From the NCBI GenBank assembly GCA_035536235.1, contig DATLOQ010000119.1, positions 9-64,008 of the forward strand: DNA of 64,000 nucleotides, read 5' to 3'. This stretch comes from Mycobacteriales bacterium. GTDB lineage: Bacteria > Actinomycetota > Actinomycetes > BP-191. This document shows, one piece after another, positions 6,806 through 43,637 of the stretch. Positions within the stretch are counted from its first letter, which is position 1. Every line of letters starts with the position of its first letter. The notes under the pieces are model-generated. The model did not search any database. It had not been told where the DNA came from and was given only the letters and a program-made list of their open reading frames with translations. The position numbers and the translations under genes were made by a program.

Positions 6806-6810
6806 CGCTC

Positions 6811-21227: not shown

Positions 21228-21959
21228 ATGCCAGATTTCGCCGGGCAGCCGGCTGTCGAGAGCGCCCCGCTGGTGGTGCTCCAGGTCTGGACCGTGGCAC
21301 TGTCCTCGGTGCCCCATGCCATCGCGCGGATGGCCCTGGACCGCCGACCCTTGCGTAGGACTCCCGGGCTGAGCTTCAGCAAGCTGCTGGGCACCGGCGA
21401 CGGGCAGAGCTTCACCGTGCGCGACGCCGACGTCCGCCGGTGGGGGCTGCTGTCTGTCTGGGCCTCCGACGCGGCGTACGACGACTTCCGCAGGTTCTCG
21501 GCCGTCCCCCGACGATGGACGCGGATCGCCGTCGAGGAGTGGGCGGTGAGCCTGCGGCCCCTGTCCAGTCGCGGCGAGTGGTCCGGCCGGGCACCGTTCG
21601 GCGAGCCGATCCCACGGCGCTACGACGGTCCGGTCGCCGCGATCACCCGCGCCCGGATCCGACCCACGAAGGCAATGACCTTCTGGAAGTCTGTGCCGGC
21701 GGTATCCGCCGACCTGCGCACAGGCGCGGGACTGCGCTGGGCCCTCGGCATCGGCGAGGCCCCCATCGGTCTGCAGGGCACGTTCTCCCTCTGGGACGAC
21801 GCCGCGGCGCTGCGGGACTTCGCCTACGGGCGCGCTGCGCACACCACAGCGATCACCCGCACGGCGGAAGTCGGCTGGTACGCAGAGGAGCTCTTCGCCC
21901 GGTTCGCTGTCGAGGCGAGCTGCGGCACGGTGGACGGGCGAGATCCGGCGCGCGTCTGA
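21228..21959 (+). CDS. CrtA-like protein (spheroidene monooxygenase family)
   Basis: Recalled similarity to Rhodobacter CrtA (TPGLSFSKLLGTGDG vs VPGLGFWKLMGSGTG; GTFSLWDDAAALRDFAY). First gene of a plus-strand carotenoid-modification operon. Confidence 0.6.
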   Translation: MPDFAGQPAVESAPLVVLQVWTVALSSVPHAIARMALDRRPLRRTPGLSFSKLLGTGDGQSFTVRDADVRRWGLLSVWASDAAYDDFRRFSAVPRRWTRIAVEEWAVSLRPLSSRGEWSGRAPFGEPIPRRYDGPVAAITRARIRPTKAMTFWKSVPAVSADLRTGAGLRWALGIGEAPIGLQGTFSLWDDAAALRDFAYGRAAHTTAITRTAEVGWYAEELFARFAVEASCGTVDGRDPARV

Positions 21960-22127
21960 GGGAATCGCTCGGTCTCGACAGGAGCGACTACGGGCCCGGG
22001 CAGCGCAGCGCCGCTGCCACCGCCGCCTGGCCGAGGCTGATCCCTCCGTCGTTGGGTGGGTGGATGCCCCTGCCGTCTCAGAAGCGGAGAGTAACGAACC
22101 CTGACGGAGTCCATAGACTCGTCCGAC

Positions 22128-23720
22128 ATGCGCGACGTCGTGGTGGTCGGAGCGGGGCACAACGCCCTGGTGGCGGCGTGCTACCTCGCGCGTGAGGGGC
22201 TCGACGTCGAGGTAGTCGAGCGCAGCGATGTCGTCGGCGGGGCGGTCTCCACCGTCGAGCGCTTCCCGGGTTACCTGATGGATCGCGGCTCGAGCGCGCA
22301 CATCATGATCCGGCACACCGGCATTCTCGAAGAGCTGCGACTCGCCGAGGCGGGGTTGACGTACCAGGACCTCGACCCGTGGGGCTTCGCGCCGTACGGC
22401 GAGGAGAGCATCTACTTCTCCGTCGACCTCGACCGCACGTGCGCGTCCATCGAGAAGGTGTGCGGGAGTCAGGACGCCGACGCCTACCGCGCCTTCGTCG
22501 ACGACTGGGCCGACCGCAACGAGCGAGTGTTCAGCGCCTTCCAGGCACCGCCGACAGGCGCCAACCTCGGCCGGCACCTGTGGGGCATCGGCAAGAGCAC
22601 CGGGCTCTCCGGCATGGAGCTGTCCCGGCAGTTCCTGACCACCGCGGACCAGCTGCTCGACACCCACTTCGACGACGAGCGCCTCAAGACCGCCCTCGCC
22701 TGGATGGGCGCGCAGTCCGGCCCGCCGACCCATGAAGTGGCGACCGCTGACCTCGTCGGCTGGAACACCCTCATGCATCGTCGCCCCCCGGGGCATCCGG
22801 TCGGCGGCAGCGGCCAGCTCTCCGTCGCCCTGGCCCGCCGCCTGGCGACGTACGGCGGGGTGCTGCGACTGGGCGACGGCGCGGCGCAGATCCGCACGCA
22901 GGACGGGCGGGCGACCGGCGTACGCACCATGAGCGGAGACACGATCGAGGCCGGCATCGTGGTAGCCGGATGCCACGTGCTGACCACCGTTGGCCTGGTG
23001 GGAGACGACGCCTCGGCCGGTCCGCGATGGCAGGAGCTGGCGCAGCGCGCGCGCCGTACGGTGCGCACCGGCAACGGCATCGGCATGGTCGTGCGGCTCG
23101 GGACAACCGACCTGCCCCGATACACCGCGGCGGATCCGGCACAGGACGGCGCGGAGCACCGGGCCATGCAGCTCATCGCACCGGACCGGGTGGCGTTGCG
23201 ACGAGCCCACGGCGAGTTCAGTGCGGGCCTCCCGCCGACCCGCCCGGCGGCGTTGGCGATGACCTTCTCCGCATTCGACGACACCATCGCGCCGCCCGGA
23301 AAACATAACGTGACCGTCTGGGGGCAGTGGCATCCCTACGAGCTCTCCAACGGTGAGAGCTGGGACGGCATCCGCGAGCGGGAGGGGCAGAAGCTCGTCG
23401 ACGCCGTCGACGCCGTCGCGCCTGGCTTCGCCAGCTCGGTGGAGCACATGCACGTCCAGACCCCGCTCGACCTGGAGCGCGAGCTCGGGCTGGTGCGTGG
23501 GCAGGTGATGCACGTCGAGATGGCGCTGGACCAGATGTTCGGGTGGCGCCCGCTCCCGGAGCTCGCCGGCTACCGCACCCCGCTCGGCGGGCTCTACCTC
23601 ACCGGTGCGTCCACTCACCCCGGCGGCGGGGTCTTCGGCGCCAGCGGTCGCTCCGCGGCCCGCATCGTCCTCGCCGACCGCTCCCCCAGCCTCCTCACCC
23701 GCTTGCGCCCCCGCCGCTGA
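22128..23720 (+). CDS. crtO: CrtO-type carotenoid 4-ketolase (CrtI-family FAD oxidoreductase)
   Basis: N-terminal VVVVGAGHNALVAACYLA and C-terminal MHVEMALDQMFGWRPLPELAGYRTPLGGLYLTGASTHPGGGV closely match, from memory, Synechocystis/Rhodococcus CrtO. Confidence 0.7.
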   Translation: MRDVVVVGAGHNALVAACYLAREGLDVEVVERSDVVGGAVSTVERFPGYLMDRGSSAHIMIRHTGILEELRLAEAGLTYQDLDPWGFAPYGEESIYFSVDLDRTCASIEKVCGSQDADAYRAFVDDWADRNERVFSAFQAPPTGANLGRHLWGIGKSTGLSGMELSRQFLTTADQLLDTHFDDERLKTALAWMGAQSGPPTHEVATADLVGWNTLMHRRPPGHPVGGSGQLSVALARRLATYGGVLRLGDGAAQIRTQDGRATGVRTMSGDTIEAGIVVAGCHVLTTVGLVGDDASAGPRWQELAQRARRTVRTGNGIGMVVRLGTTDLPRYTAADPAQDGAEHRAMQLIAPDRVALRRAHGEFSAGLPPTRPAALAMTFSAFDDTIAPPGKHNVTVWGQWHPYELSNGESWDGIREREGQKLVDAVDAVAPGFASSVEHMHVQTPLDLERELGLVRGQVMHVEMALDQMFGWRPLPELAGYRTPLGGLYLTGASTHPGGGVFGASGRSAARIVLADRSPSLLTRLRPRR

Positions 23721-23874
23721 TCGAGCCGCAGCAGCGACCAGCCAGACACGCAACCGGCGGCTCGGAGTCCTGCGTGGTGCTGAGGTGGCGGGTCGGTGGC
23801 GGGTGCCGGCTCCGGTTGTGTGGGGCTGTGGTCGCTCCCGTCTCGGGAGAGGCGCCTTGCGTATCGTGCCTGCC

Positions 23875-24645
23875 ATGTCTCGAACGACCGGGTTGCGTGG
23901 TACCTGGCTGCTCGCCGGACTCACCGTGCTGGCTCAGATCGGCTATCCGCTGACCTCCGGTACGGCGCGCGACCGGCTCACCGTCGCGACGGTGGCCTTG
24001 TTCTTCGCCACCTCGGTGACCCACGCGCTGATCACTCGGGGGGCCCGCTTCACGGCGGCCCTCGTCGGGGTGACGACGGGCGGCGGCCTGCTCGTCGAGG
24101 CGATCGGAGTGCGCACGGGCATCCCGTTCGGCGACTACGCCTACGCCGACTCCCTCGGCGCGAAGGTCCTCGGCGTGCCGGTCGTCATCCCGCTGGCGTG
24201 GACGATGATGGCCTACCCGGCGCTGCTGGTGGCTCATCGCGTGACGACCCGGCCGCTGCTCGAGGCCGTGCTTGCCGGGGCCGCCCTGGCCAGCTGGGAT
24301 CTCTTCCTCGACCCGCAGATGGTTGCCGCCGGGCACTGGATCTGGTCCGCGAGCGGCCCGTCGATCACCGGGATCCCCGTCAGCAACTACCTCGGCTGGC
24401 TGGTGGTCGCCACCGTCATGATGGGCTTGCTCCAGCAGCTCGTCAGGGACCGTGACGGCGGCGACGTCGCAGTCCCTTATGCGCTGTACCTCTGGACGTA
24501 CGCCTCGAGCGTGCTGGCCAACCTGGCCTTCTTCGGCCGGCCGCTGGTCGCCCTCGTCGGCGGGTTGGGCATGGGAGCTGTAGTGGCAATCTTCCTGCGG
24601 TCGACGCTGCACGCACCAGCTCGAGCTCGACTCGCCACTCCATGA
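23875..24645 (+). CDS. cruF: carotenoid biosynthesis membrane protein, CruF-like (carotenoid 1',2'-hydratase family)
   Basis: ~256-aa polytopic membrane protein in the carotenoid operon. CruF-family context, followed by a glycosyltransferase. Confidence 0.6.
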   Translation: MSRTTGLRGTWLLAGLTVLAQIGYPLTSGTARDRLTVATVALFFATSVTHALITRGARFTAALVGVTTGGGLLVEAIGVRTGIPFGDYAYADSLGAKVLGVPVVIPLAWTMMAYPALLVAHRVTTRPLLEAVLAGAALASWDLFLDPQMVAAGHWIWSASGPSITGIPVSNYLGWLVVATVMMGLLQQLVRDRDGGDVAVPYALYLWTYASSVLANLAFFGRPLVALVGGLGMGAVVAIFLRSTLHAPARARLATP

Positions 24646-25787
24646 GTCTTGCCGTGCGCGCCGCCTCCATTGGCGCCGCCGCCTTCGCCGTGCACGCCGC
24701 GGTCAACAGCCGCGCACTTCGCCGGCCACCGACGCCTTCCGACTCGGTAGGAGAGCGAGTCAGCGTGCTGCTGCCGGCGCGTGACGAGGCGACCCGCATC
24801 GGTCCGACGCTGCGGGCGCTGCTCGCCCAGACCGGTGTCCCTCGGCTGGAGATCCTCGTGCTCGACGACGGCTCCACCGACGCGACCGCGGACGTGGTGC
24901 GCGCCACGGCCGGCGACGACCCCCGGGTGCGCCTCATCGAAGGCGGCACCGAAGTCCCGGCCGGCTGGCTGGGCAAGCCGTGGGCTTGCGCGCGGCTGGC
25001 TGACGCGGCAGGTCCTGCCGCGACGGTGCTGGTGTTCCTCGACGCCGACGTCACCGTCGCGCCCGACGGACTGGCCCGCACCGTGGCCCTGCTCCGTGAC
25101 GCGCGGCTGCAGCTCGTCTCGCCCTATCCGCGCCAGCTCGCCGACGGGATCGGCCCGCGGCTGGTGCAGCCCCTGCTGCAGTGGTCCTGGCTGAGCTTCC
25201 TCCCGCTGCGCGCGGCCGAGCACTCGGCACGCGAGTCGCTCGCCGTAGCCAACGGACAGCTGCTCGCGGTCGACGCCGACGCGTACCGCACCTGGGGCGG
25301 GCACGCCGCCGTACGGTCCGACGTCATCGAAGACGTCGCGCTCGCCCGGGCGGCGAAGCGTCACGGCTACCGCGCCACCGTTGCTGACGGCACCGACATC
25401 GCCACCTGTCGGATGTACGACGACTGGCCCGCTTTGTGCGAGGGCTACACGAAGAGCCTGTGGGCTGCCTTCGGCTCCCCCGCCGGCGCGACCGCGGTGA
25501 TGTCGTCCCTCCTGGCCCTCTACGTGCTTCCCCCCGCCGCAGCAGTCAGCTCGCTGCTGCGCGGTCGGCCGCGCGCCGCCGTCGTACCGCTGCTCGGCTA
25601 CGCCGCCGGCGTGGCCGGGCGGCTGGTCAGCGCCCGCCGTACCGGGGGGCGTTCGCGCGATGCTCTCGCTCATCCGGCCTCGATCGCCGTGCTCGCCGGG
25701 CTGACCGCGCGGAGCTGGCACGCGCGACGCACCGGCACCTTGACCTGGCGCGGCCGATCCCTCGACGCCGCCAGCACTGCTCGCTGA
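24642..25787 (+). CDS. family-2 glycosyltransferase (carotenoid glycosyltransferase, CruC/CrtX-like)
   Basis: GT-A DxD region (LVLDDGSTD ... FLDADV); ATGA-coupled to cruF; a paralog sits at 41867-42976. Confidence 0.7.
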   Translation: MSLAVRAASIGAAAFAVHAAVNSRALRRPPTPSDSVGERVSVLLPARDEATRIGPTLRALLAQTGVPRLEILVLDDGSTDATADVVRATAGDDPRVRLIEGGTEVPAGWLGKPWACARLADAAGPAATVLVFLDADVTVAPDGLARTVALLRDARLQLVSPYPRQLADGIGPRLVQPLLQWSWLSFLPLRAAEHSARESLAVANGQLLAVDADAYRTWGGHAAVRSDVIEDVALARAAKRHGYRATVADGTDIATCRMYDDWPALCEGYTKSLWAAFGSPAGATAVMSSLLALYVLPPAAAVSSLLRGRPRAAVVPLLGYAAGVAGRLVSARRTGGRSRDALAHPASIAVLAGLTARSWHARRTGTLTWRGRSLDAASTAR

Positions 25788-27283
25788 TGGCGCGCATCGT
25801 CGTGATCGGTGCCGGTGTCGGCGGGCTCTCCGCCGCCGCCCGCCTCGCGGCGCTCGGACACCAGGTCACCGTGTGCGAGCAGGCCCCCGAGGTCGGCGGC
25901 AAGCTCGGTCTGCATGAGCGCGACGGATTCCGCTTCGACACCGGACCGTCGCTGCTGACGATGCCGCACCTGCTGCGCGAGCTCTTCGACGACACCGGGA
26001 GCACCCTCGACGAGGCCGTCACGCTGCGTCCGGTGGTGCCCATCGCGCACTACCGCTTCGCCGACGGCGCCGAGCTCGACTCAACCGGCGACCTCGACGC
26101 GTTCGCGGCCACCCTCGACGACGTGCTGGCTCCCGGCAGCGGCGCGGACTGGCGCCGGATTATGGCCCGCGCCGAGCAGATCTGGGCGGCCACCCACGAG
26201 GACTTCCTCGAGAGCGCGCTGGAGGGTTCACGCACTCTGCTGCGCCAAGCGACGCGAGTAGGGGACCTGCGGACGGTCGCGCCGTGGACCACGCTGCGCG
26301 GGCTCGGTCGCCGCTACCTGCGTGACCCCCGGCTGCGGATGCTCCTCGACCGCTACGCGACCTACACCGGCTCGGACCCGCGCCGCGCGCCGGCCGCGCT
26401 GGCCGTCGTGCCGTGGGTCGAGCAGACCTTCGGCGGGTGGTACGTCGAAGGCGGGCTCTCCCGCATCGGCGAGGCGATCCGCGACCGGGTGCTCGAGCGC
26501 GGCGCCGTCGTCCGGACCGGCGCAGACGTCGTCGAGGTGCGCATCGAGGGCGGCCGGGTGCGTGGGGTGCGCCTCGCCGACGGAGAGCTGCTGCCGGCCG
26601 ACCTGGTGGTCGCCAACGCCGACGCGACGCACCTCTATCGCGACCTCGTCTCCGACCCGCGCACGGCCGCCGTACGGCGACGCCTCGCCCGGGCCACGCC
26701 GAGCCTGTCCGGGTTCGTGCTGCTGCTCGGCCTGCGTGGGCGCACCCCCGACCTCGCCCACCACACCGTGCTGTTCCCGCGGAACTACGACGCGGAGTTC
26801 GACTCGCTCTTCGGCGCGACGCCGCGGCCGGTGCTGGACCCGACGATCTACCTGTCCGTGCCGACTGACGCGGCCATCGCGCCGCCTGGACACGAGGCGT
26901 GGTTCGTCCTGGTCAACGCGCCTCGACAAGGCCAGGCCGGTCGCGACGGGCCAGTCGTCGACTGGGGCGCTCCCGGCGTCGCCGACGCGTATGCCGAGCA
27001 CCTGCTCGACCTGCTGCGCGACCGCGGCCACGACGTGCGCGAGCGGATCGTGAGCCGCACCCTCATCAGCCCGGTCGACCTCGAGCGCCGTACCCGAGCG
27101 GTCGGCGGTGCCATCTACGGCACCAGCTCGAACGGCGTGCGCGCTGCCTTCCTGCGCCCGGCCAACCGCTCACCGGTGCCCGGGATGTACCTCGTCGGCG
27201 GCTCGGCTCACCCCGGCGGCGGGCTCCCGTTGGTGCTGCTCTCCGCCCGCATCGTGGCCGGACTCGTCGGCCCGGCCGGCTGA
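25787..27283 (+). CDS. phytoene-desaturase-family oxidoreductase (CrtD-like carotenoid 3,4-desaturase candidate)
   Basis: MARIVVIGAGVGGLSAAARLA FAD fold and C-terminal CrtI-family motif GMYLVGGSAHPGGGLP; TGATG overlap with the GT2 gene. Confidence 0.7.
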   Translation: MARIVVIGAGVGGLSAAARLAALGHQVTVCEQAPEVGGKLGLHERDGFRFDTGPSLLTMPHLLRELFDDTGSTLDEAVTLRPVVPIAHYRFADGAELDSTGDLDAFAATLDDVLAPGSGADWRRIMARAEQIWAATHEDFLESALEGSRTLLRQATRVGDLRTVAPWTTLRGLGRRYLRDPRLRMLLDRYATYTGSDPRRAPAALAVVPWVEQTFGGWYVEGGLSRIGEAIRDRVLERGAVVRTGADVVEVRIEGGRVRGVRLADGELLPADLVVANADATHLYRDLVSDPRTAAVRRRLARATPSLSGFVLLLGLRGRTPDLAHHTVLFPRNYDAEFDSLFGATPRPVLDPTIYLSVPTDAAIAPPGHEAWFVLVNAPRQGQAGRDGPVVDWGAPGVADAYAEHLLDLLRDRGHDVRERIVSRTLISPVDLERRTRAVGGAIYGTSSNGVRAAFLRPANRSPVPGMYLVGGSAHPGGGLPLVLLSARIVAGLVGPAG

Positions 27284-28020
27284 CCGAGCAGGGCCCGGCG
27301 AACGGCGATCGCCAGCTGGACGACCGAGAACGCGCACAGCCCCCCGACTGCGGCCAGCCCGAGGGTCGGGAGCACCGGTGCCGCGGCGGGAAAGATGCCG
27401 GTGAAGTGGATGGTCGGGGAGCACAGCGCCACCCGGGTCGGCCGCTCCCCCGGCGTCACGACGCCGATGTCGCCCGCTCCAGCGTTGCCGGCGCGTGCCC
27501 GTAGGTACTCCAGCAGGAACAACGCCAGCCCGGTCAGGACGGCCAGCTCCAGCGGCCCGCCGAGCGCGACGATCGCGGCCAGGTAGAGAACGTCGCAGAT
27601 CCGGTCGGTGAGGCTGTCGAGGACGTAACCCCACTGCGATGTGCGCCGGGTGAGCACCGCGACGCAGCCATCCAGCGCGTCAAGCAGGCCACTGCCCACC
27701 ACCAGCCAACCGGCCAGGATCGGCCACCGACCGCCGGCCTCCGCGCCGACGTAGACGGCGAAGGCCAGCCACACCCCCCAGATGGTGAGCAGGTCAGGAA
27801 GCACGCCGCGACGAGCCAGCGGGCGGGCGATCGTGTAGGCGATTGTCAGCCAGCCGTGGGTGAAGGCATTGCCACGCGGGTCGTAGCCCTCGTGCAGCGT
27901 GCTCCACCGGGTGAAGTAGCCGTCCAGGTCCGGCACCGCCTCGTCCGGCGGGCGCGCGGTGGCCAGGCTCAGCACGACCAGCAGGGCGGCGAGGCCGAGC
28001 AGCACTAGGGGCTGGGTCAC
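27208..28020 (-). CDS. CDP-alcohol phosphatidyltransferase family protein
   Basis: Membrane protein with a D-x2-DG-x2-AR-x8-G-x3-D-x3-D type region (DALDGCVAVLTRRTSQWGYVLDSLTDRICD). Its 3' end overlaps the crtD-like 3' end by 76 nt (convergent). Confidence 0.6.
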   Translation of the reverse strand: MTQPLVLLGLAALLVVLSLATARPPDEAVPDLDGYFTRWSTLHEGYDPRGNAFTHGWLTIAYTIARPLARRGVLPDLLTIWGVWLAFAVYVGAEAGGRWPILAGWLVVGSGLLDALDGCVAVLTRRTSQWGYVLDSLTDRICDVLYLAAIVALGGPLELAVLTGLALFLLEYLRARAGNAGAGDIGVVTPGERPTRVALCSPTIHFTGIFPAAAPVLPTLGLAAVGGLCAFSVVQLAIAVRRALLGQPAGPTSPATMRAESSTNGSPPPG

Positions 28021-28182: not shown

Positions 28183-28716
28183 GTGGGCGCACCGCCGGCA
28201 AGGCTGCCGGCCATGAACCGGCCGATGCCTCCGGTGTGCACGGCCGGCGAGCGACCGATGCTCGAGGCGATGCTCGACTGGTACCGCGCGGGGGTGCTGA
28301 GCAAGGTCGCCGGGATGAGCCAGGCCGACGCGACCTCGACGCCGCTGCCGTCGCCGACCACCGCGGCGGGGCTCGTGAAGCACCTGGCGCTGGTGGAGGA
28401 CTTCTGGTTCACGGTCGGCATCGGCAAGGCGGCCATCCCCGAGCCCTGGGCCGGCGTGGACTTCACGGTCGACCCGGACTGGGAGTTCCGCACGGCCACC
28501 GAGGCACCGCTCGCGGAGTCCGTGGCGCTCTACGTGCAGGCGTGCGAGCGGTCGCGGGCCGTCAACGCCAATCACTCGCTCGACGACATCGGCACCGACC
28601 GCCGTGGCGATTTCACGCTGCGCTGGGTGCTGGTGCACATGCTCGAGGAGACGGCCCGACATCTCGGCCACCTCGACATCCTCCGCGAGCTCGCCGACGG
28701 CACTACCGGCGAATAG
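28183..28716 (+). CDS. DinB_2/DUF664 family protein (mycothiol-dependent-enzyme-like four-helix bundle)
   Basis: Sequence pattern WYRAGVLSKVAGMS...LVKHLALVEDFWF typical of DUF664. The start could be an internal Met. Confidence 0.55.
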   Translation: MGAPPARLPAMNRPMPPVCTAGERPMLEAMLDWYRAGVLSKVAGMSQADATSTPLPSPTTAAGLVKHLALVEDFWFTVGIGKAAIPEPWAGVDFTVDPDWEFRTATEAPLAESVALYVQACERSRAVNANHSLDDIGTDRRGDFTLRWVLVHMLEETARHLGHLDILRELADGTTGE

Positions 28717-28729
28717 CGCTAGAGGATCG

Positions 28730-30745: not shown

Positions 30746-30833
30746 CGTGGTGCCTCCAGGCGGGGTCATCACAGCATTGGGGTACGACCTGGCGATTTCG
30801 CCACGTCTCGGGACATTCCTGCTCAGCCAGCCG

Positions 30834-31718: not shown

Positions 31719-31806
31719 TCCGCAGAGGTTAGAGGACGGGAGACCTCTCGACCGGGCCGACACGGGCGCGCGGCGCCGTCGGCGGCACTGCTGGCAGAAT
31801 CGCGAC

Positions 31807-35647: not shown

Positions 35648-37138
35648 ATGCGCACCGTCAGTGGTCCCAGCGATCGGGTCGTCATCGTCGGCGCCGGGCT
35701 GGCCGGGCTGTCCGCGGCGCTGCGCCTCGCCGGAGCTGGTCGCGAGGTCACTGTGCTGGAGCGCGAGTCCGTCCCCGGCGGTCGAGCAGGGCGACTCTCC
35801 GACAGCGGCTTCGAGTTCGACACCGGACCGACCGTGCTGACTATGCCGGACCTGATCCGCGACGCATTCGCGTGCGTCGGGGAGGAGATGGACGACTGGC
35901 TGACCCTGCGGCCGCTGTCCCCGCTCTACCGCGCCTACTACCCGGACGGCTCCACCCTGGACGTGCACAGCGACACCGACGCGATGGCCGAGGAGGTCGC
36001 GCGCGTCTGTGGTCCCGCCGAGGCGGCGGGCTACCGGCGCTACGTCGACTTCGTGTCGGAGCTCTACCGGCTGGAGATGGCCGACTTCATCGACCGCAAC
36101 ATCGACTCGCCCTTCTCGCTGCTGCGGCCGTCGCTGGCCCGGCTGGCGGCGATCGGCGGCTTCCGGCGGCTGGCACCCAAGGTGGGTGAGTACCTCAAGG
36201 ACCCGCGGACGCAGCGGGTGCTCTCCTTCCAGTCGATGTACGCCGGGCTGTCGCCGTACGACGCGCTCGCGATCTACGCGGTCATCGCCTACATGGACTC
36301 CGTCGCCGGCGTCTACTTCCCCGAGGGCGGCATGCACGCGGTGCCGGTCGCGCTCGCCGGCGCGGCGGTCAAGCACGGCGTCGACATCCGCTACTCCACG
36401 ACGGTGACGCAGGTCGAGGTCGTCAACGGTCGGGCCGTCGGCGTGCTCACGGCTGCCGGCGAGCGAATCCCGGCCGATGTGGTGGTGCTCAACCCGGACC
36501 TCCCGGTGGCCTATCGCGAGCTGCTGCCGCCGACCGCGGTGCCGGCGCGGGTGAAGTCGCTCACCTACTCGCCGTCGTGCTTCCTGCTGCTGGCCGGGTC
36601 GACGGCGTCGTACTCCCAGATCGCGCACCACAACATCCACTTCGGCAAGTCGTGGCGCGGCGTCTTCGACGAGCTCATCGACCAGCAGTCGCTGATGAGC
36701 GACCCCTCGGTGCTGGTGACCGCGCCCACGCACACCGACCCGTCGCTGGCACCGGAGGGCCGTCACATCTACTACGTGCTCTTTCCGACGCCCAACCTCG
36801 ACGCTGCTCTCGACTGGTCGGTCATCGGCCCGCGCTACCGCAATGAAGTCATCGGGCACCTGGAGCGCCTCGGCTACGTCGGATTCGGCGACGCGATCGA
36901 GGTCGAGCACGTGACGACGCCGGCCGACTGGAGGGCCCGCGGGATGGAGCGAGGCGCGCCGTTCGCGGCGGCGCACACCTTCTTCCAGACGGGTCCGTTT
37001 CGGCCCGCCAACCTCGCGCCCAAGGTGGACGGCGTGGTCTTCTGCGGCTCGGGCACCCAGCCGGGCGTCGGCGTACCGATGGTGCTCATCAGCGGCCGCC
37101 TCGCCGCTGAGCGCATCCTCGGCCCCAGCACGTCCTAA
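35648..37138 (+). CDS. crtI: phytoene desaturase
   Basis: VVIVGAGLAGLSAALRLA dinucleotide fold and full-length CrtI similarity including the C-terminal FCGSGTQPGVGVPMV motif. Confidence 0.85.
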   Translation: MRTVSGPSDRVVIVGAGLAGLSAALRLAGAGREVTVLERESVPGGRAGRLSDSGFEFDTGPTVLTMPDLIRDAFACVGEEMDDWLTLRPLSPLYRAYYPDGSTLDVHSDTDAMAEEVARVCGPAEAAGYRRYVDFVSELYRLEMADFIDRNIDSPFSLLRPSLARLAAIGGFRRLAPKVGEYLKDPRTQRVLSFQSMYAGLSPYDALAIYAVIAYMDSVAGVYFPEGGMHAVPVALAGAAVKHGVDIRYSTTVTQVEVVNGRAVGVLTAAGERIPADVVVLNPDLPVAYRELLPPTAVPARVKSLTYSPSCFLLLAGSTASYSQIAHHNIHFGKSWRGVFDELIDQQSLMSDPSVLVTAPTHTDPSLAPEGRHIYYVLFPTPNLDAALDWSVIGPRYRNEVIGHLERLGYVGFGDAIEVEHVTTPADWRARGMERGAPFAAAHTFFQTGPFRPANLAPKVDGVVFCGSGTQPGVGVPMVLISGRLAAERILGPSTS

Positions 37139-37192
37139 ACCCTCCTCGCCTCCCGGTCCAGGCGCCGTGGCCCGCGACCGAATTCCCCATCT

Positions 37193-37276: not shown

Positions 37277-37280
37277 TCAG

Positions 37281-38183
37281 TCAGGGCCGGAGCATCTCCG
37301 CCAGGGTCGCAAGCACGTAGTCGGGCTCGTGGACGACGTGCTGCCAGCAGAAGCGGAGCAGCTGCAGCCCGAGGATCTCGAGCTCGTTGGCGCGCCACTC
37401 GTCAACTGCAAGCCGCTCCAGGCCGTGGAACAGGTCACCCTCGGTCTCCACAACGAGCCGGGGTGGGTACCAGAAGTCGACCCGACCGAGGCGGCGTCCG
37501 TTGGCGCGCCGAAGGAGTCGCTGAGTCTGGCCCGGCGGCATACCGGCCAAGACGACCAGGACGCGGAAGAGCGACTCCAACACCGATCCAGCCCGGGGGT
37601 TGACGAGTCCCAGCACGGTCGATACCCGCGACGCATCTCGTCCCCACAGCGCACGGCGCTCACCGATGACCGCCAGCATCCGCAACAGCCCCAATCGCAT
37701 GAGCGAGTCGATGGCCGCGACCGCGGTGCTCTGCGGCTCGGCACGAGCGAGGTCGACAGCCAGCCGGGCAGGTGCGGTCACTTTGAGCACGATCACGTCG
37801 TCGCCAACCCGCAGGCGCAGCGGTCCGACGTCCGCCGGGCCGAGATCGGATCGATGCACCTCGTACGGCGAGCTCACTCGCGACCGGTTGCGCTCTACAG
37901 TGAGGTGAGTAGCGCCGTCCCAGCCGAGTATTGGCACGCCTTGCAGCACGGCCGCGGCGGCATGGCTGACCGCAGCGCGCCGCCCAGCCGCCTCCTCGGC
38001 CACCTCGTGCACCCAGTCCGGGGAGGAGGGGATGAGCCAGGTCTTCGCGCGTACTAGCAGTACGTCGCCCCTACGCCGACGCTGGGCCAATTCGGCCGCC
38101 TCGACCCCGTGCCCGCGGGCGAACGGCGTGGAGACCAGCCGACCCGTCGCACCAGCGGCTGCCGCCAGGCTCTCGAATGACAT
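37281..38183 (-). CDS. AbiEi_4 N-terminal domain / DUF559 (Vsr-like PD-(D/E)XK endonuclease) protein
   Basis: The C-terminal VDFWYPPRLVVETEGDLFHG...DEWRANELEILGLQLLRF is the DUF559 signature; the N-terminus is AbiEi-like. ATG 38183 is preferred, because the GTG 38294 extension would translate the left arm of the flanking repeat. Confidence 0.6.
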   Translation of the reverse strand: MSFESLAAAAGATGRLVSTPFARGHGVEAAELAQRRRRGDVLLVRAKTWLIPSSPDWVHEVAEEAAGRRAAVSHAAAAVLQGVPILGWDGATHLTVERNRSRVSSPYEVHRSDLGPADVGPLRLRVGDDVIVLKVTAPARLAVDLARAEPQSTAVAAIDSLMRLGLLRMLAVIGERRALWGRDASRVSTVLGLVNPRAGSVLESLFRVLVVLAGMPPGQTQRLLRRANGRRLGRVDFWYPPRLVVETEGDLFHGLERLAVDEWRANELEILGLQLLRFCWQHVVHEPDYVLATLAEMLRP

Positions 38184-38267
38184 CCACCCAGCGTGCGCAC
38201 TCGCACCGTCGTACCGGGGTCGTGACGTGAATCTGTGAATAAGCCGGATCGGCGGCCGCACCCGATC

Positions 38268-38349
38268 CCGCACACAAAGGGGGCCGTCGTCCACAGGCCG
38301 AGCGGCGTCGCGTGCTCGCGGCGACGAGGGCGCGATCGCTTTGTGTGCG
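38268..38349. repeat. inverted-repeat element copy 2: CCGCACACAAAG (38268-38279) ... CTTTGTGTGCG (38339-38349), 59-bp spacer containing an internal GC hairpin
   Basis: Read directly. It lies in the divergent spacer between the AbiEi/DUF559 start and the crtB start. Confidence 0.65.
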
Positions 38350-38399
38350 AGCAGCTCTGATCTGGGGCCTCGCGAACCAACAGTGGGAGACTCAGGCGC

Positions 38400-39338
38400 A
38401 TGGGGTTGGTGCAGGAAGCGCTGTCACGGGGTGAGCTGCGCCGGGTCGCCGACCCGACCCTGCGGGCGTCGTACCTCGCCTGCAAGGACCTCAACGCTCG
38501 CCATGGCCGCACCTACTTCCTCGCGACGCTGCTGCTGCCGGCGTGGAAGCGCCCGTACGTGCACGCCCTCTACGGCTTTGCGCGGTACGCCGACGAGATC
38601 GTCGACGACCTCGGCTCGACCGCCAGCGACGCCGAGAAGGCGGCCCACCTCACCACCTGGGGCGAGCAGTTCCTCGCCGACGTACGCCGGGGCGAGAGCA
38701 CGGACCCGGTCTGCCGCGCGGTCGTCGACACCGTGCGCCGGTGGGACATCCCCATCGCGCACTTCGAGGCGTTCCTGCAGTCGATGCAGATGGACCTGAC
38801 CGTCACCGACTACAAGACCTACGAAGACCTGATGGTCTACGTCTACGGGTCCGCCGCAGTGATCGGGCTGCAGATGGTGCCGATCCTCGAGCCGCTGGAC
38901 GACTCGGCGTCTGCCTACGCGGCGGACCTCGGCATCGCCTTCCAGCTGGCCAACTTCATCCGCGACGTCGGCGAGGACCTGCAGCGCGGCCGCATCTACC
39001 TCCCGTTGGAGGACCTGCAAGCGTTCGGCGTCGACCGCGAGCACCTCGCGCGCGGTGTCGTAGACGGCCCGATACGACGGCTGCTGGCCTTCGAGATATC
39101 CCGCACCCGCGAGATCTTCCGGGCCGCCCGCCCCGGCGTCCGCCTGCTGCACTCGACCAGCCGCGACTGCATCGAGACGGCGCTCACCCTCTACGGCGGC
39201 ATCCTGGACGAGGTGGAGGCCGCCGACTACCAGGTGCTCGACCGGCGGGTCTCCGTCGGCCTGCCCCGGCGGGCGGCCGTCGCCGGCCGGGGAATCGTCC
39301 GGGCCCGGCGGGCGCGCCGCCGTGGCCCCTGGGCGTAG
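38400..39338 (+). CDS. crtB: phytoene synthase
   Basis: Squalene/phytoene synthase Asp-rich motifs (YARYADEIVDD; FIRDVGEDLQRGRIYLP). Confidence 0.9.
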   Translation: MGLVQEALSRGELRRVADPTLRASYLACKDLNARHGRTYFLATLLLPAWKRPYVHALYGFARYADEIVDDLGSTASDAEKAAHLTTWGEQFLADVRRGESTDPVCRAVVDTVRRWDIPIAHFEAFLQSMQMDLTVTDYKTYEDLMVYVYGSAAVIGLQMVPILEPLDDSASAYAADLGIAFQLANFIRDVGEDLQRGRIYLPLEDLQAFGVDREHLARGVVDGPIRRLLAFEISRTREIFRAARPGVRLLHSTSRDCIETALTLYGGILDEVEAADYQVLDRRVSVGLPRRAAVAGRGIVRARRARRRGPWA

Positions 39339-39416
39339 CCTCTCAGGAGGCAGGCCTCGGCCGCCGTACGGCGAAGTTCAGCGAAGCTGCACTACTTCCG
39401 GCCCTCAGGAGCTCCC

Positions 39417-41048
39417 ATGCGCACGCGCCCCAGTCGGCTCTCTCGGACCCTGGCGCTCGGCGGCCTTGCGGCGGTCGCGATCGGCGGGGCGACCCTGTCC
39501 TCGCCCGCCACGGCCGCCACCCCCTGCACGCCTCCGCCGCGAGCGATGACCTTCGACGAGCCGGGCTATGTCGACACGACTCGAGCCGGCGGTGAGCCCA
39601 TCATCTTCACCCACCCCGACGGCACGCTGCTCTACGGCTCGCACGCCGGCACGACGCACTTCTTCGCCCCCGAATCCGCGGACGAGCAGATCGCCGCTTT
39701 CGCCGGCAACTACCGCGGCCAGACCTACTACTACCACTCCAAGGACAACGGGAAGAGCTGGACCTACGTCGACCGCACCTTCCCACCCGACTCGACGCTG
39801 GCCTCCGGCTTCTCCGACCCGGAGTTCGCCTACGACAAGGCGGGCAACGTCTACGTCTCGGAGATCAACCTGGCCAACATCTCGATGTCGAAGTCGACCG
39901 ACTCGGGCCAGTCCTACAAGGAGCAGAACTTCTTCGCCCAGACGGTCACCGACCGGCAGTGGACCGAGGGGGACGAAGAGGACGTCGTCTACATCATCGC
40001 CAACTCCTTCGGCGGCGGTACCTTCCCCAGCCGACCCGTCGGCAACAGCGGGCACTACCTCTACAAGAGCGTCGACGGCGGCAAGACCTTCACGCCAGGC
40101 ATCCCCGACGATGCCGGCCTCGGCGACATCCGGGTGGACAAGAGTGACGGCACGCTCTACGAGGCGCAGTACGCCGGCGCTGGTGGCGATCTGATCATGC
40201 GAGCCTTCCGCGGTGCGCGCGCGGACGACATGACCCCCGAGGACAACGTCGTCGCCGAGGGTGTCAGCATGCTGGCGCACTGGCCGACCTTCGACCTCGA
40301 CCCCGCTGGCAACCTCTACATCACCTGGGACGAGTCTGGCCAGGGCGATCGCCCGGCCGGCATCTACTACGCCTACTCCACCGACCGCGGCAAGAAGTGG
40401 TCCGCGCCGGTCCGCCTCGACAAGGACGAGAAGACTGACATCTGGCCCTGGCTCGCCGTCGGTGACGAGGGCCGGGTCGGAGTCGCCTGGTTCCAGGCCG
40501 ACGTGCAGCTGCCGGAGGAGGACGCCCAGACTCCCGGTGACCATGGCTGGACGGTGCAGGCCGCGCAGAGCCTCAACGGGCTCGGCTGCCTCTCCTCCCC
40601 GGTCCCCGCCTTCCGCAACGCCACGGCCGTCGCCGACCCCGTCCACGCCGGGACGATCTGCCAGGGCGGCACCGTGTGCCAGGCGCAGGCCATCGACCGC
40701 CGTCTCGGCGACTACTTCAGCGTCGAGATCGCCGGGGACGGTAAGTTCGTGCTCGCGTACTCCGACACTCGGATGGGCGGCCCGGTGGCGCTGCCCGGCT
40801 TCACCCGGCAGACCGACGGGCCGTCGTTCTTCGGCAAGCCGGAGCCGCGGTTCGGCAGCAAGGGTGCGGTCCGGCCGGCACCCGCGCGACCGCAGCCACA
40901 GCCCCAGCCGGCGCCCCGACCCGCTCCCAAGCCGGCGCCGCTGCCGGCCACCGGTGGGTCGCTGGCCGGCATAGGTCTGGCGCTGCTCGCCGGCGCGGCC
41001 GGTGTCGCCGCCGTACGCCGGCACCGGCAGCGTGCTGTCACCGGGTGA
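39417..41048 (+). CDS. secreted BNR/Asp-box (sialidase-like glycoside hydrolase) protein with C-terminal LPATG sorting signal
   Basis: Signal peptide; four SxDxGxxW/F Asp-boxes (SKDNGKSW, STDSGQSY, SVDGGKTF, STDRGKKW). C-terminus PQPQPQPAPRPAPKPAPLPATGGSLAGIGLALLAGAAGVAAVRRHRQR. Confidence 0.75.
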   Translation: MRTRPSRLSRTLALGGLAAVAIGGATLSSPATAATPCTPPPRAMTFDEPGYVDTTRAGGEPIIFTHPDGTLLYGSHAGTTHFFAPESADEQIAAFAGNYRGQTYYYHSKDNGKSWTYVDRTFPPDSTLASGFSDPEFAYDKAGNVYVSEINLANISMSKSTDSGQSYKEQNFFAQTVTDRQWTEGDEEDVVYIIANSFGGGTFPSRPVGNSGHYLYKSVDGGKTFTPGIPDDAGLGDIRVDKSDGTLYEAQYAGAGGDLIMRAFRGARADDMTPEDNVVAEGVSMLAHWPTFDLDPAGNLYITWDESGQGDRPAGIYYAYSTDRGKKWSAPVRLDKDEKTDIWPWLAVGDEGRVGVAWFQADVQLPEEDAQTPGDHGWTVQAAQSLNGLGCLSSPVPAFRNATAVADPVHAGTICQGGTVCQAQAIDRRLGDYFSVEIAGDGKFVLAYSDTRMGGPVALPGFTRQTDGPSFFGKPEPRFGSKGAVRPAPARPQPQPQPAPRPAPKPAPLPATGGSLAGIGLALLAGAAGVAAVRRHRQRAVTG

Positions 41049-41060
41049 CCTCCAGCACCG

Positions 41061-41870
41061 GTGCCACGCAGCGCTAGCACCTGGGTCCGTCGTGCGCTCG
41101 GCGTCCTGGTCACGGTCTCCCTCGGCCTGGGCACGTTCGTCCTCTACGGCGCTCGAGTGGCCCACCCGGTCAGCGCCGCGGAGGCGCTCCGCGGCTTCAC
41201 CGAGCGGCCGTCGTACGCCGGACGTCCCGGTCTCGACGCGGCCTTAGACGGAGTCCGACCGGCGGCCGGCGTCTACCGGTACGCGACCACCGGGTCGGCG
41301 CGGGTGGACCTGCTGGGCATCGAGCGGCACTACCCCTCGACAACGGCACGGGTGGTCCGGCTCGGTCCCGGCTGCCAGTGGGAGGAACAGGTGCCGCTCT
41401 TCGACGAGCATGTCGAGACCTACTCCGCCTGTGCGGCAGCTGGCGACCAGATCGAGACCGGCTACGCCACCCGGCTGACTTACTTCTTCGTGCCCGATAT
41501 CAGTGACGCGGGATGCGCCCCGGGCGGGAGCCGGACAGGACACCGCCTGGCGCCAGGCAGCACGCAGAGGTTTCGCTGCCTCGACCGAGCCCGTCAGGTC
41601 CGCACGGACGGCAGCATCACGTTCCTTGGCGCGTCGACCGTCCACGTGGACGGGCGGGAGCAGCCATGTCGGCAGGTGCGGATGCTCACGGTGCTCCGTG
41701 GTCGCACCAGCGGCGCCGCGCTGCGCGAGCTGTGCACCGAGGCGAGCACGGGCCTGGTGCTGCGGGAGACCCGCACCGTCGGGCTCACCGTGGAGAGCGC
41801 GTTCGTCGGAGTCGTCCGCTACGTCGAGTCCGCCGAGTTCACGCTGAAGTCGATGACGCCACGGCGCTAG
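41061..41870 (+). CDS. hypothetical N-terminally membrane-anchored Cys-containing extracytoplasmic protein
   Basis: Starts 13 nt after the LPATG sialidase-like gene; one TM then ~230-aa soluble domain with six Cys; no domain recognised. Confidence 0.45.
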   Translation: MPRSASTWVRRALGVLVTVSLGLGTFVLYGARVAHPVSAAEALRGFTERPSYAGRPGLDAALDGVRPAAGVYRYATTGSARVDLLGIERHYPSTTARVVRLGPGCQWEEQVPLFDEHVETYSACAAAGDQIETGYATRLTYFFVPDISDAGCAPGGSRTGHRLAPGSTQRFRCLDRARQVRTDGSITFLGASTVHVDGREQPCRQVRMLTVLRGRTSGAALRELCTEASTGLVLRETRTVGLTVESAFVGVVRYVESAEFTLKSMTPRR

Positions 41871-42976
41871 CCAACCGGCACCGGGCGCCCACGCCAGCCG
41901 ACCGGCCGGCCGCGGTGACGCAGCCACCTGGCCTGCGCGTGGTGCACAGCCAGCAGCAGATCGGTGAGGGGGGAGAGTGCGGCTGGCCAGACCGGCTGCC
42001 GGGCGCGCGCTCGGGCCGCGCCGTCGGTCACCACCTGCGCCGCGACCGCGACAGCGGCGAGCCGGCGGGTCGACGTCGAGCGGGACTGCAGGAGCGCGAC
42101 CGGCGCGAACCCCAGGGCTGCCGCGGCCGCGCCCGCTGGCCACGGGCCGGACCGGACCGCGGAAGTGTTCTTCAGCAGCCCCACCCAGCAAGCGCGGGCG
42201 TCGTCATACATCTGCGCGGAGTAGCCGTCGAGAGTTGTCGCGAGCACCACCTGCCCACCGTGTGCTTTCACCAGCCGGGCGAGCGCGACGTCCTCGACGA
42301 CCTGGTCAGCGACGGCGAGGTGCCCGCCGACGGCGTTGTAGACGCTACGGCGGATCAGCAGGCAGGGGCCCGCGGCGAAAGCTGCCGACGACGTCGGGTC
42401 GGCGATGAGATCCGGGTCGTGCCGCCGCGCGACGGCCAGGCCGACGGCCGGCAGCAGCCACCCGCTGAGGGGGTCCACGGTGACCAGCCGACCGACGGCG
42501 CTGACCAGGTCGGCGTCGCGCTCGTCGGCGGCGCGCAGCAGTCGGTTCAGCAGGTCCGGCGCCACCCGTACATCAGCATCGACGAACCACAGCCACTCCC
42601 CCCGCGCCGTCGCAGCACCCGCCGCGCAGGCCACCGGCTTGCCGAGCTGTCCCACCTGCGGGCCGGGGGAAGGCAGGACCCGGACTGAGGGGCCGGCTCG
42701 GCTCGCCGCCAGCGCGGTGCCGTCGCGCGAGGCGTCGTCCACCACCACGACCTCGGTGAGGTCGGGTCCGGAGAGGCACAGAGCCTCCAGGCACTCGGCG
42801 ATGTGGCGAGCCTCGTCTCGGGCCGGCACGACGGCGCTCACCGTGGTGATCCGGGGGCGGTCGGGGGGCGCCACCAGTCGATGCCGGGCTGCGCCGAACC
42901 GAGCCAGCCGACGAACGCGGTACGCCGTGAACCCGATCGAGGCGGCGGTCACCACGGCTCGCGGGTCGGCGAGCAT
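41867..42976 (-). CDS. family-2 glycosyltransferase (carotenoid glycosyltransferase paralog)
   Basis: Parallels the 24642 GT2 (VVPARDEARHIAECLEAL; QVVEDVALARLVKAHGGQV...QMYDD). Start chosen at ATG 42976. Confidence 0.65.
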   Translation of the reverse strand: MLADPRAVVTAASIGFTAYRVRRLARFGAARHRLVAPPDRPRITTVSAVVPARDEARHIAECLEALCLSGPDLTEVVVVDDASRDGTALAASRAGPSVRVLPSPGPQVGQLGKPVACAAGAATARGEWLWFVDADVRVAPDLLNRLLRAADERDADLVSAVGRLVTVDPLSGWLLPAVGLAVARRHDPDLIADPTSSAAFAAGPCLLIRRSVYNAVGGHLAVADQVVEDVALARLVKAHGGQVVLATTLDGYSAQMYDDARACWVGLLKNTSAVRSGPWPAGAAAAALGFAPVALLQSRSTSTRRLAAVAVAAQVVTDGAARARARQPVWPAALSPLTDLLLAVHHAQARWLRHRGRPVGWRGRPVPVG

Positions 42977-43296
42977 CACCCCCGCGGGCGTCCGGCACGT
43001 GCCGCTTCGCGGCGGCCCAGCCACACCCACCACAGCAGCGTCTGCACGACCAGCGCGAAGCCGAAGAGCAGGTCCTCGACGGGTGCGTAGACGATGCGCA
43101 CTCCGAGGATGGCGTCATCGTCGTAGGTCACGATGTCGCGGCCGGTGAGGACTCCGTTGGTGATCAGCTGGAAGAAGATGACGATGGCGTAGGACACCCA
43201 GAAGATGCGCCGGCGGAGCAGACCGGTGCGCAGCACCAAGACCTCGAGCAGCAGCGTCAGGACGACGCCGAGCGAAGCGGCGGCGGTGTAGGTCAC
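42976..43296 (-). CDS. crtYd: lycopene cyclase domain protein (heterodimeric cyclase subunit CrtYd-like)
   Basis: ~105-aa three-TM protein of the lycopene-cyclase-domain family; GTGA overlap with the upstream subunit gene. Confidence 0.7.
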   Translation of the reverse strand: MTYTAAASLGVVLTLLLEVLVLRTGLLRRRIFWVSYAIVIFFQLITNGVLTGRDIVTYDDDAILGVRIVYAPVEDLLFGFALVVQTLLWWVWLGRREAARAGRPRG

Positions 43297-43637
43297 CCGC
43301 TCGCCCCTTCGTCGCCGCCGCGCCAACCGGTGGCCGCGCGCACCGCTTCGAAGGTGAGGATGGCGCAGGTAGGGATCACCAGGAAGAAGAGCAGCTCCTC
43401 GAGCGGCAGGTTGCCGGGCAGGGTGATCCCGCTGGTCTGCTCCGGGTCATAGCTCCAGTGGCCGCGGGCAATCGCCCAGACGTCCCAGAGGACGAAGACG
43501 GTGACGACGGGGAGGAGGGCGAGCAGCCAACGCCGAGGTCGGCGGTAGACCCGCGTGTGGTAGTAGAACTCCAGCGGCAACGTGCCCAAGGCGCACGCCG
43601 CGAGCACCAGGAGGTAGGCCGCCTTCACGGCCAACAT
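43293..43637 (-). CDS. crtYc: lycopene cyclase domain protein (CrtYc-like subunit)
   Basis: ~114-aa three-TM protein; the pair of small lycopene-cyclase-domain genes is typical of actinobacterial CrtYc/CrtYd. Confidence 0.7.
   Translation of the reverse strand: MLAVKAAYLLVLAACALGTLPLEFYYHTRVYRRPRRWLLALLPVVTVFVLWDVWAIARGHWSYDPEQTSGITLPGNLPLEELLFFLVIPTCAILTFEAVRAATGWRGGDEGASG

Follow-up and report, generated by a model that had tools for sequence, protein, structure and literature searches.

We analysed a 64,000-nucleotide (nt) stretch of DNA, hereafter the window, from a Mycobacteriales bacterium (contig DATLOQ010000119.1 of assembly GCA_035536235.1, positions 9 to 64,008), in which an earlier note had described a carotenoid locus and predicted a monocyclic carotenoid glycoside as its product. 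Because the window has a G+C content of 70-74%, raw lists of open reading frames (ORFs) were unreliable; genes were called by third-position GC, their starts were then refined by a start-codon scan, and families were assigned by Pfam and NCBIfam profile scans of the window proteins. Each carotenoid gene of the earlier note was recovered in this way at the same coordinates, and its family calls, including those for the CrtA-like protein and CruF, were borne out by the profile searches, with strong matches for all ten pathway genes. Ten carotenoid-family genes lie within 22 kb and their order is repeated in dozens of genomes, which is far beyond chance. For comparison we used 80 Actinomycetota loci from a CruF genome scan, searched by tblastn with the window proteins. 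Counts for genes upstream of CruF refer to the 66 loci that offer 4.5 kb or more of sequence on that side, and downstream counts for the phosphatidyltransferase, reductase and IdsA genes (Table 1) to the 51 loci with at least 8 kb downstream.

Candidate genes for end-group modification, glycosylation and cyclisation

The first gene of the group encodes a CrtA-like protein, of which residues 28-237 are covered by NF045923 (model positions 17-225 of 226) with a score of 183.6 bits against an equivalog cut-off of 300. The protein is 35-43% identical to annotated spheroidene monooxygenases from photosynthesis plasmids of the Roseobacter group, where the matches sit in a classical crtB-crtI / crtA-bchI-bchD context. 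Alignment with Roseobacter litoralis CrtA and actinobacterial homologs placed H205, T140, T185 and R225 in invariant columns, which by spacing correspond to H194, T128, T173 and R214 of C. sphaeroides CrtA; there, the heme ligand H194 and the substrate-side residues T128 and T173 were established by mutagenesis, and the propionate-binding role of R214 comes from modelling only (PMC13488962). The family has at least 5980 matches, many of them in Geodermatophilaceae, and a homolog adjoins CruF in 56/66 loci. It has also been published for acI Actinobacteria (bioRxiv 10.1101/367102), and the view that a CrtA-family monooxygenase is unusual in an actinobacterium does not hold. A compact Nonomuraea cluster has another order (CruF-CrtD-GT2-CrtA-like beside CrtB-CrtI-IdsA), and because this differently ordered cluster also carries the CrtA-like gene, a functional tie of the protein to carotenoids is supported. 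Since known actinobacterial products such as phleixanthophyll have a 2'-hydroxyl group (PMC5884252), we read it as a hydroxylase, predicted to be a carotenoid 2'-hydroxylase of the CrtA-OH type.

The next gene product was matched best by NF045689 (258.6 bits, versus 109 for crtI_fam and 88 for CrtD), which assigns it to the CrtO-type ketolases at a score far under the cyanobacterial equivalog cut-off of 1000; its N-terminal FAD-binding fold is matched by NAD_binding_8 over residues 6-59. At the same position, 43 of the 66 loci have an ortholog, with identities of 55-92%. Two relatives (L092:15082-17697 and L093:14794-17349) carry a gene for a GNAT-type acetyltransferase between CrtA-like and CrtO, and the same two have a 148-aa ORF without a family between CrtO and CruF; the window contains neither.

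CruF starts at the ATG at 23875 and not at the ORF start at 23605, as determined by third-position GC and the start-codon scan. It far exceeds the gathering score of 25 for PF04240 (Caroten_synth), reaches 140.9 bits with TIGR03460, just under the cut-off of 154.7, and contains several segments resembling transmembrane (TM) helices. The glycosyltransferase GT2a, which follows CruF in 59/61 loci, scored 117.8 bits with CruG (cut-off 600) and 124.6 bits with HpnB. CrtD, present in 57/61 loci, passed the crtI_fam cut-off of 238 bits; its best specific model is NF045637 CrtD, at 358 bits against an equivalog cut-off of 580, and it is distinct from its CrtI paralog at 35648, which scored 522 bits.

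The genes from CrtA-like to CrtD lie on one strand, and the earlier note had described all their starts as coupled. This applies to cruF/GT2a, which overlap by ATGA, and to GT2a/crtD, which overlap by TGATG; gaps of 168 nt between CrtA-like and crtO and of 154 nt between crtO and cruF do not fit the description. Additional genes were seen between GT2a and CrtD in several relatives, namely a PIG-L family deacetylase in a Frankiaceae metagenome-assembled genome (MAG; L010:11891-12754), an ATP-grasp-like protein in Jiangellales (L053:6945-8420), an ORF of similar size to this ATP-grasp-like gene with no family match (L073:11966-13390), a molybdopterin oxidoreductase (L038:11834-13516) and an ABC-2 protein (L043:12802-13914). 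These extra genes hint at lineage-specific sugar tailoring.

At the other end of the locus, crtYc and crtYd overlap by 4 nt, each with one lycopene-cyclase domain, and translational coupling extends through crtYc-crtYd-GT2b. GT2b scored 130 bits with HpnB and 116 bits with CruG (cut-off 600) and shares 36% identity with GT2a; its close homologs are few, and more distant ones are labelled chlorobactene glucosyltransferase by JGI. It follows CrtYc-CrtYd in all three contexts examined (L088, L089 and L090). The presence of two paralogous GT2 genes had been called unusual; their paralogy stands, and this pair is the one narrower feature of the locus, which is otherwise less unusual than was suggested.

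Table 1 Features of the carotenoid locus and adjoining genes, with their positions in the window
Feature	Position	Strand	Profile match or other feature
HEPN SAV_6107-like gene	20508-20975	-	upstream of CrtA-like gene
CrtA-like heme monooxygenase, predicted CrtA-OH-type carotenoid 2'-hydroxylase	21228-21959	+	NF045923 183.6 bits, E 3e-54
CrtO-type carotenoid 4-ketolase (putative)	22128-23720	+	NF045689 258.6 bits, E 1e-76
CruF carotenoid 1',2'-hydratase (1'-hydroxylase; putative), multi-pass membrane protein	23875-24645	+	PF04240 136.8 bits, E 1e-39
GT2a carotenoid glycosyltransferase (putative), CruC/CruG-like lipid GT2	24642-25787	+	PF00535, PF13506
CrtD 1-hydroxycarotenoid 3',4'-desaturase (putative)	25787-27283	+	crtI_fam 359 bits, NF045637 CrtD 358 bits
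CDP-alcohol phosphatidyltransferase-family membrane protein (CDP-OH-PT)	27208-28020	-	PF01066 40 bits, E 6e-10
MST/DinB protein, non-pathway	28183-28716	+	PF04978, E 9e-40
705-aa LPATG sortase-anchored surface protein (putative), non-pathway	28730-30847	-	sequence features; no family match
Methylenetetrahydrofolate reductase (MTHFR), Rv2172c-like housekeeping backbone gene	30834-31982	-	PF02219 E 6e-106; TIGR00676 344 bits
IdsA polyprenyl (geranylgeranyl) diphosphate synthase, Rv2173-like backbone gene	31807-32895	+	PF00348 E 1e-50; NF042416 331 bits
Penicillin amidase-family protein, inserted between idsA and crtI, non-pathway	32892-35624	-	PF01804, E 1.6e-113
CrtI phytoene desaturase	35648-37138	+	TIGR02734 522 bits (cut-off 238)
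DUF559-like gene, inserted between crtI and crtB, non-pathway	37281-38294	-	weak PF04480, E 2.6e-4
CrtB phytoene synthase	38400-39338	+	PF00494 237 bits; NF045686 202 bits
BNR-like LPATG-anchored protein (putative)	39417-41048	+	weak BNR matches; LPATG + TM
269-aa signal-anchored Cys-rich protein	41061-41870	+	no family match
GT2b, second lipid/carotenoid-type GT2	41867-42976	-	PF00535 81.5 bits, PF13506 64.5 bits
CrtYd, heterodimeric lycopene beta-cyclase subunit	42976-43296	-	PF18916 E 6e-12; TIGR03462 58.5 bits (cut-off 39.4)
CrtYc, heterodimeric lycopene beta-cyclase subunit	43293-43637	-	PF18916 E 8e-11; TIGR03462 78.1 bits (cut-off 39.4)
296-aa lipoprotein-like protein (LAGC lipobox, weak thioredoxin-like C-terminus)	43727-44617	+	divergent from crtYc

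Conservation and architecture of the locus

The 80 loci come from Frankiales (Frankia), Egibacteraceae, Euzebyales, Nitriliruptorales, Acidothermaceae, Jiangellales, Motilibacteraceae, Actinomycetospora, Pseudonocardia, Catenuloplanes, a Mycobacterium sp. and many MAGs. The recurrent order is CrtA-like, CrtO, CruF, GT2a and CrtD on one strand, CDP-OH-PT and MTHFR on the other, and IdsA, CrtI and CrtB again on the first. Upstream of CruF, CrtA-like and CrtO occur together in 40/66 loci; downstream, CDP-OH-PT was found in 42, MTHFR in 34 and IdsA in 31 of the 51 loci. The divergent MTHFR/IdsA pair is conserved among relatives, in most of which CDP-OH-PT and MTHFR are 15-1300 nt apart, and in most loci nothing separates IdsA from CrtI. 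MTHFR homologs begin aligning at query residue 88, and the true start of the window gene is probably near 31720.

The carotenoid genes had been described as three sub-clusters: the CrtA-like to CrtD block, the IdsA, CrtI and CrtB genes, and the cyclase operon with GT2b. Because the first two are joined through CDP-OH-PT and MTHFR in most relatives, and the last two are joined in L088-L090, where CrtYc-CrtYd-GT2b is linked to the 269-aa gene, the BNR protein and CrtB-CrtI-IdsA, they make up one locus and the tripartite division falls away; MTHFR comes next after IdsA in L088 and L089 only. It is one conserved locus, stretched in the lineage of the window by two LPATG proteins, the MST/DinB gene, the penicillin amidase gene and the DUF559 gene. 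Among metagenomic loci, L084 is the nearest relative; its gene order, 705-aa gene included, is identical except that it lacks the penicillin amidase gene, an insertion that the window shares with L092 and L093 at the same place between idsA and crtI. Homologs of the DUF559 gene lie at the same position between crtI and crtB in L089 (67%) and L040 (37%); the former label "AbiEi/DUF559" stands in its weak DUF559 part, and AbiEi gave no match. Beside its DUF559 homolog, L089 has crtB cut down to a 108-aa SQS_PSY fragment (L089:13656-13982), which suggests that the pathway is decaying there and that the space between crtI and crtB repeatedly houses the DUF559 gene.

The 705-aa and BNR-like proteins both terminate in PAPRPAP-type repeats, then LPATG, a TM segment and a tail rich in Arg (RRR in the 705-aa protein), look like sortase-anchored surface proteins, and are conserved at their positions in the close relatives L084 and L088. 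The 269-aa gene is convergent with GT2b, with a 4-nt overlap, and together with the 296-aa gene it flanks the cyclase operon in L088, L089 and L090. Searches of Pfam, NCBIfam and PDB sequences returned nothing useful for the 269-aa and 296-aa proteins, which their signal-anchor and lipoprotein features mark as putatively extracytoplasmic. The BNR-like and 269-aa proteins are unlikely to be pathway enzymes.

Within the window, heme-biosynthesis genes and a MenA-like gene lie furthest upstream, followed by beta-oxidation genes, an M64 peptidase gene and the HEPN SAV_6107-like gene; about 25 of the 80 loci have the latter upstream, at distances that vary, and it behaves as a backbone marker. The heme/quinone block (2236-7995) has no connection with the pigment locus; in it, a MenA-like UbiA prenyltransferase stands beside protoporphyrinogen oxidase, an EamA transporter, ferrochelatase and uroporphyrinogen decarboxylase. 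Downstream are genes for an Rv2175c-like regulator, a ThiH-like protein, ThiG, a PASTA Ser/Thr kinase and two DAHP synthases. The last two (57383-58456, +, and 59815-61206, -), about 1.4 kb apart, belong to different classes, one being type I with a ferredoxin-like N-terminal domain and the other class II. We take this neighbourhood to be that of Mycobacterium tuberculosis Rv2172c (MTHFR), Rv2173 (IdsA2), Rv2174 (MptA), Rv2175c and PknL. An MptA-family gene follows crtI in L091 and L093, consistent with the M. tuberculosis Rv2172c-Rv2175c map. The backbone is made up of the HEPN SAV_6107-like gene, CDP-OH-PT, MTHFR and IdsA, then the Rv2175c-like gene, the Thi genes and the PASTA kinase gene, with crt genes on both sides.

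The convergent overlap of 76 nt between crtD (stop at 27283) and CDP-OH-PT (end at 27208) was confirmed. It had been singled out as unusual, which is not the case: 19 of 45 convergent crtD/CDP-OH-PT pairs overlap, by 17-540 nt, and the window presents one instance of a variable run-on. The overlapped C-terminal tail of CDP-OH-PT is rich in Pro and Ser, of low complexity and poorly conserved, and the overlap fits an ORF running on to the next stop in GC-rich antisense DNA. A designed regulatory role for the overlap was considered and rejected, as its length varies so widely and many pairs have none.

Predicted pathway and alternative readings

We propose that the locus encodes a complete C40 carotenoid glycoside pathway of the phleixanthophyll/sioxanthin/"actinoxanthin" type with an added ketolase, a reading to which we assign a probability of roughly 0.65. 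IdsA would supply geranylgeranyl diphosphate (GGPP), from which CrtB would form phytoene and CrtI lycopene. CrtYc/CrtYd would then cyclise one end of lycopene to give gamma-carotene. On the open psi end, CruF would hydrate C-1',2' to leave a 1'-hydroxyl group, CrtD would insert the 3',4' double bond and the CrtA-like heme enzyme would hydroxylate C-2'. GT2a would then add a hexose, which the parallel with phleixanthophyll and sioxanthin would place on the tertiary 1'-hydroxyl group, and CrtO would oxidise C-4 of the beta ring. GT2b, whose gene is translated together with those of the cyclase, may add a second sugar. What was observed directly is membership of the families, conservation of residues and synteny; each catalytic step, its regiochemistry, the order of steps and the sugar are assigned by homology.

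CruF, CrtD, the CrtA-type enzyme, a glycosyltransferase and the gamma-carotene-forming core all lie within 22 kb and are conserved as a set. Because CruF, CrtD and CrtA-OH build this type of psi end group in flavobacteria and a glycosyltransferase and CrtO are present as well, the product is most likely 4-ketophleixanthophyll or a close relative, as far as the gene set can tell. Among the window genes scanned with Pfam, no CrtU, CrtZ, P450, acyltransferase or lycopene elongase was seen. The monocyclic 4-keto 1'-O-glycoside class predicted by the earlier note comes near this, and omits the 3',4' double bond of CrtD and the 2'-hydroxyl group of the CrtA-like enzyme; its more specific expectation of keto-gamma-carotene or OH-chlorobactene glucosides fits less well than 4-ketophleixanthophyll, as no CrtU-type aromatising desaturase was among the genes scanned.

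Several points weigh against the proposed pathway. The bacterium is represented by an uncultured MAG, and its product is predicted from the genes. CrtA-like, CrtO, CruF and CrtD all score under their NCBIfam equivalog cut-offs; they are to be regarded as family members whose isofunctional orthology is unproven. Whether the CrtA-type enzyme acts as a 2-hydroxylase or a 2-ketolase, whether the cyclase is a monocyclase or a bicyclase, and whether glycosylation is at 1'-O or 2'-O are distinctions that sequence does not make, and it does not reveal the sugar. Lone homologs of the CrtA-like protein also exist in Geodermatophilus pulveris (L002:10001-10699, 62% identity) and on a plasmid of Deinococcus taeanensis (L086:9989-10774, 43%), with no carotenoid genes within 10 kb of either, and the family may act in trans or have other substrates.

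These lone homologs, together with the uncoupled 168-nt gap before crtO and the score under the equivalog cut-off, would agree with a CrtA-like protein that stands outside the pathway. The product would then lack the 2'-hydroxyl group and be a 4-keto-1'-glycosyloxy-3',4'-didehydro-1',2'-dihydro-gamma-carotene of the deoxyflexixanthin or myxobactone type, close to what the earlier note had predicted. Its frequent place beside CruF-type clusters, extending to the reordered cluster of Nonomuraea, the conserved catalytic residues and the 2'-hydroxyl group of phleixanthophyll, a known actinobacterial product of the gene set (PMC5884252), and reportedly of sioxanthin, argue otherwise, and we consider this reading unlikely. 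Rather unlikely, too, is a cyclase acting as a full bicyclase, with echinenone and canthaxanthin as main pigments formed by CrtO, and with the psi-end enzymes providing minor monocyclic or acyclic di-glycosides from a minor gamma-carotene/lycopene pool. Cyclases of the CrtYc/Yd type include bicyclases as well as a monocyclase (PMC2889829), CrtO-type enzymes accept beta-carotene, and two GT2 genes could serve both ends of an acyclic substrate; still, five co-located psi-end-modifying genes conserved across orders favour a major monocyclic or psi-end product, and the characterised actinobacterial products of this enzyme set are monocyclic (PMC5884252, PMC11425705).

Production of a C50 carotenoid, as by the split-cyclase clusters of Corynebacterium and Micrococcus, is very nearly untenable. 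The resemblance is superficial and limited to two small cyclase-domain genes. No UbiA-family gene was found in the 21-44 kb region, and the only one in the window (2236-3453) is MenA-like and about 19 kb away among heme genes; CruF/CrtD/CrtO chemistry fits a C40 gamma-carotene. CrtYc/Yd have been assigned to C40 Actinobacteria, and CrtYe/f with CrtEb to C50 producers (Klassen 2010, PMC2889829). The C50 reading was dropped on these grounds: the earlier conclusion that crtEb is absent and the cyclase probably acts on C40 substrates is upheld, and a CrtYc/Yd pair without an elongase is no oddity, being the standard actinobacterial C40 cyclase.

A further question is whether CDP-OH-PT belongs to the pathway. 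Measured against the CDP-alcohol phosphotransferase signature DxxDGxxAR...GxxxDxxxD, the protein has D114, D117, G118, A121, G131, D135 and D139, and Val122 replaces the signature Arg. It falls under the cut-offs of all named subfamilies (88 versus 180 bits for the AIP-synthase model) and has distant PIP-synthase matches in the PDB. With this atypical motif, with its convergent position next to crtD in 42/51 loci, and with neighbourhoods in Nitriliruptoria, Actinomycetospora and a Mycobacterium sp. where it adjoins CrtD and no MTHFR is near, it might be a true pathway member, possibly together with GT2b, and would then furnish the carotenoid glycoside with a phospho-alcohol or phosphatidyl head group or form a dedicated partner lipid. 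A contig from JGI 3300044720 (L090:9356-9973) has a 205-aa CDP-OH_P_transf gene, 37% identical, between CrtYd and a GT2b homolog, which points the same way; this contig has no CruF, CrtD or MTHFR within 10 kb, and an Acyl_transf_3 gene adjoins its IdsA. Among the papers listed by a full-text literature search, none paired "CDP-alcohol phosphatidyltransferase" with carotenoid clusters. Against a pathway role, no phospho-carotenoid is known.

Other contexts tie the gene to MTHFR instead. It is translationally coupled to MTHFR in L091, which has no crt modification genes within 9 kb, and is co-directional with MTHFR in L092 and L093, where unrelated genes separate it from crtD. It is missing from 9/51 loci, and the Nonomuraea crt cluster has no homolog at E <= 1e-8. 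A tblastn search of plasmids with CDP-OH-PT gave no match; a metagenome scan with it found just one locus, the closely related L084, in which the gene order is the same. Pathway membership of CDP-OH-PT is improbable in our view, and we give little chance to its making, jointly with GT2b, either a dedicated partner lipid or a polar head group so far undescribed, such as a diglycoside or a carotenoid glycoside with a phospho or phosphatidyl link. Most likely CDP-OH-PT belongs to the backbone as part of the MTHFR operon, with the modification genes placed next to it.

Relation to known carotenoid pathways

The predicted structure exactly matches 4-ketophleixanthophyll, with its 4-keto beta ring, 1'-O-glucoside, 2'-hydroxyl group and 3',4' double bond; this pigment and phleixanthophyll are known from Mycobacterium phlei, and phleixanthophyll palmitate from Nocardia (PMC5884252). 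Phleixanthophyll has also been reported from Actinoplanes missouriensis (PMC11425705). The producers M. phlei and Nocardia likewise belong to the Actinomycetota; the pigments of M. phlei come without gene assignments in the cited papers. The same gene grouping and product logic were published for acI Actinobacteria, in which crtA-cruF-cruG-crtD lies upstream of crtE-crtI-crtB, with two unnamed genes between the groups (IMG gene numbering) and crtYc-crtYd elsewhere, and for which "actinoxanthin" was predicted (bioRxiv 10.1101/367102). That product is also only predicted. In acI an acyltransferase is usually present as well and a separate CrtO is lacking, whereas the window has CrtO and a second GT2 in the cyclase operon, with no acyltransferase seen among the genes scanned.

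Flavobacteria share the psi-end chemistry: heterologous expression of genes from Nonlabens showed that CruF, CrtD and CrtA-OH, acting on gamma-carotene, build the psi end found in myxol, which is 1',2'-dihydroxy-3',4'-didehydro (PMC11855829). CrtA-OH of Flavobacterium P99-3 reportedly takes part in the same chemistry (Rahlert 2009, as cited elsewhere). The flavobacterial myxol pathway, as in Nonlabens spongiae, differs in its single-chain CrtY, its CrtZ (3-hydroxylation) and the lack of a glycosyltransferase and of CrtO. Deinoxanthin, salinixanthin and myxobactone-type pigments are, like the predicted product, monocyclic 4-keto carotenoids with a 1'-hydroxyl or 1'-O-glycoside psi end, made with CrtO, CruF or CrtC, and CrtD; they differ in the absence of CrtA-type 2'-hydroxylation, or in having a P450 acting at ring C-2, and in their cyclases, and salinixanthin is in addition acylated by CruD.

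Salinispora tropica offers another actinomycete parallel in sioxanthin, a glycosylated monocyclic C40 carotenoid made from separate precursor and modification gene groups; according to papers citing Richter et al. 2015, it carries an aryl (phi) ring and its sub-clustered pathway (terp1, terp2 and two single genes) is dispersed around the chromosome. Here all groups lie within 22 kb, and CrtO is present with no aromatising desaturase among the window genes scanned. The psi end of sioxanthin is reportedly 1'-glucosyloxy-2'-hydroxy-3',4'-didehydro, with no keto group. Catenuloplanes (L044), a relative from the Micromonosporaceae, has the order CrtA-like-CruF-GT2-CrtD ... CDP-OH-PT-MTHFR. Both the crtA-cruF-cruG-crtD grouping and a sub-clustered pathway to a glycosylated carotenoid are already published for Actinobacteria.

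The value of the present analysis lies mainly in annotation, in that it provides a candidate gene set for a class of pigments that mycobacteria and Nocardia are reported to contain. The locus is very widespread, occurring in Frankiales, Nitriliruptoria, Acidothermaceae, Jiangellales, Pseudonocardiales, Micromonosporaceae and many soil MAGs, and encodes the gene set expected for phleixanthophyll-type glycosides. Its main variable is the presence or absence of CrtO, which should predict keto versus non-keto pigments from genomes alone.

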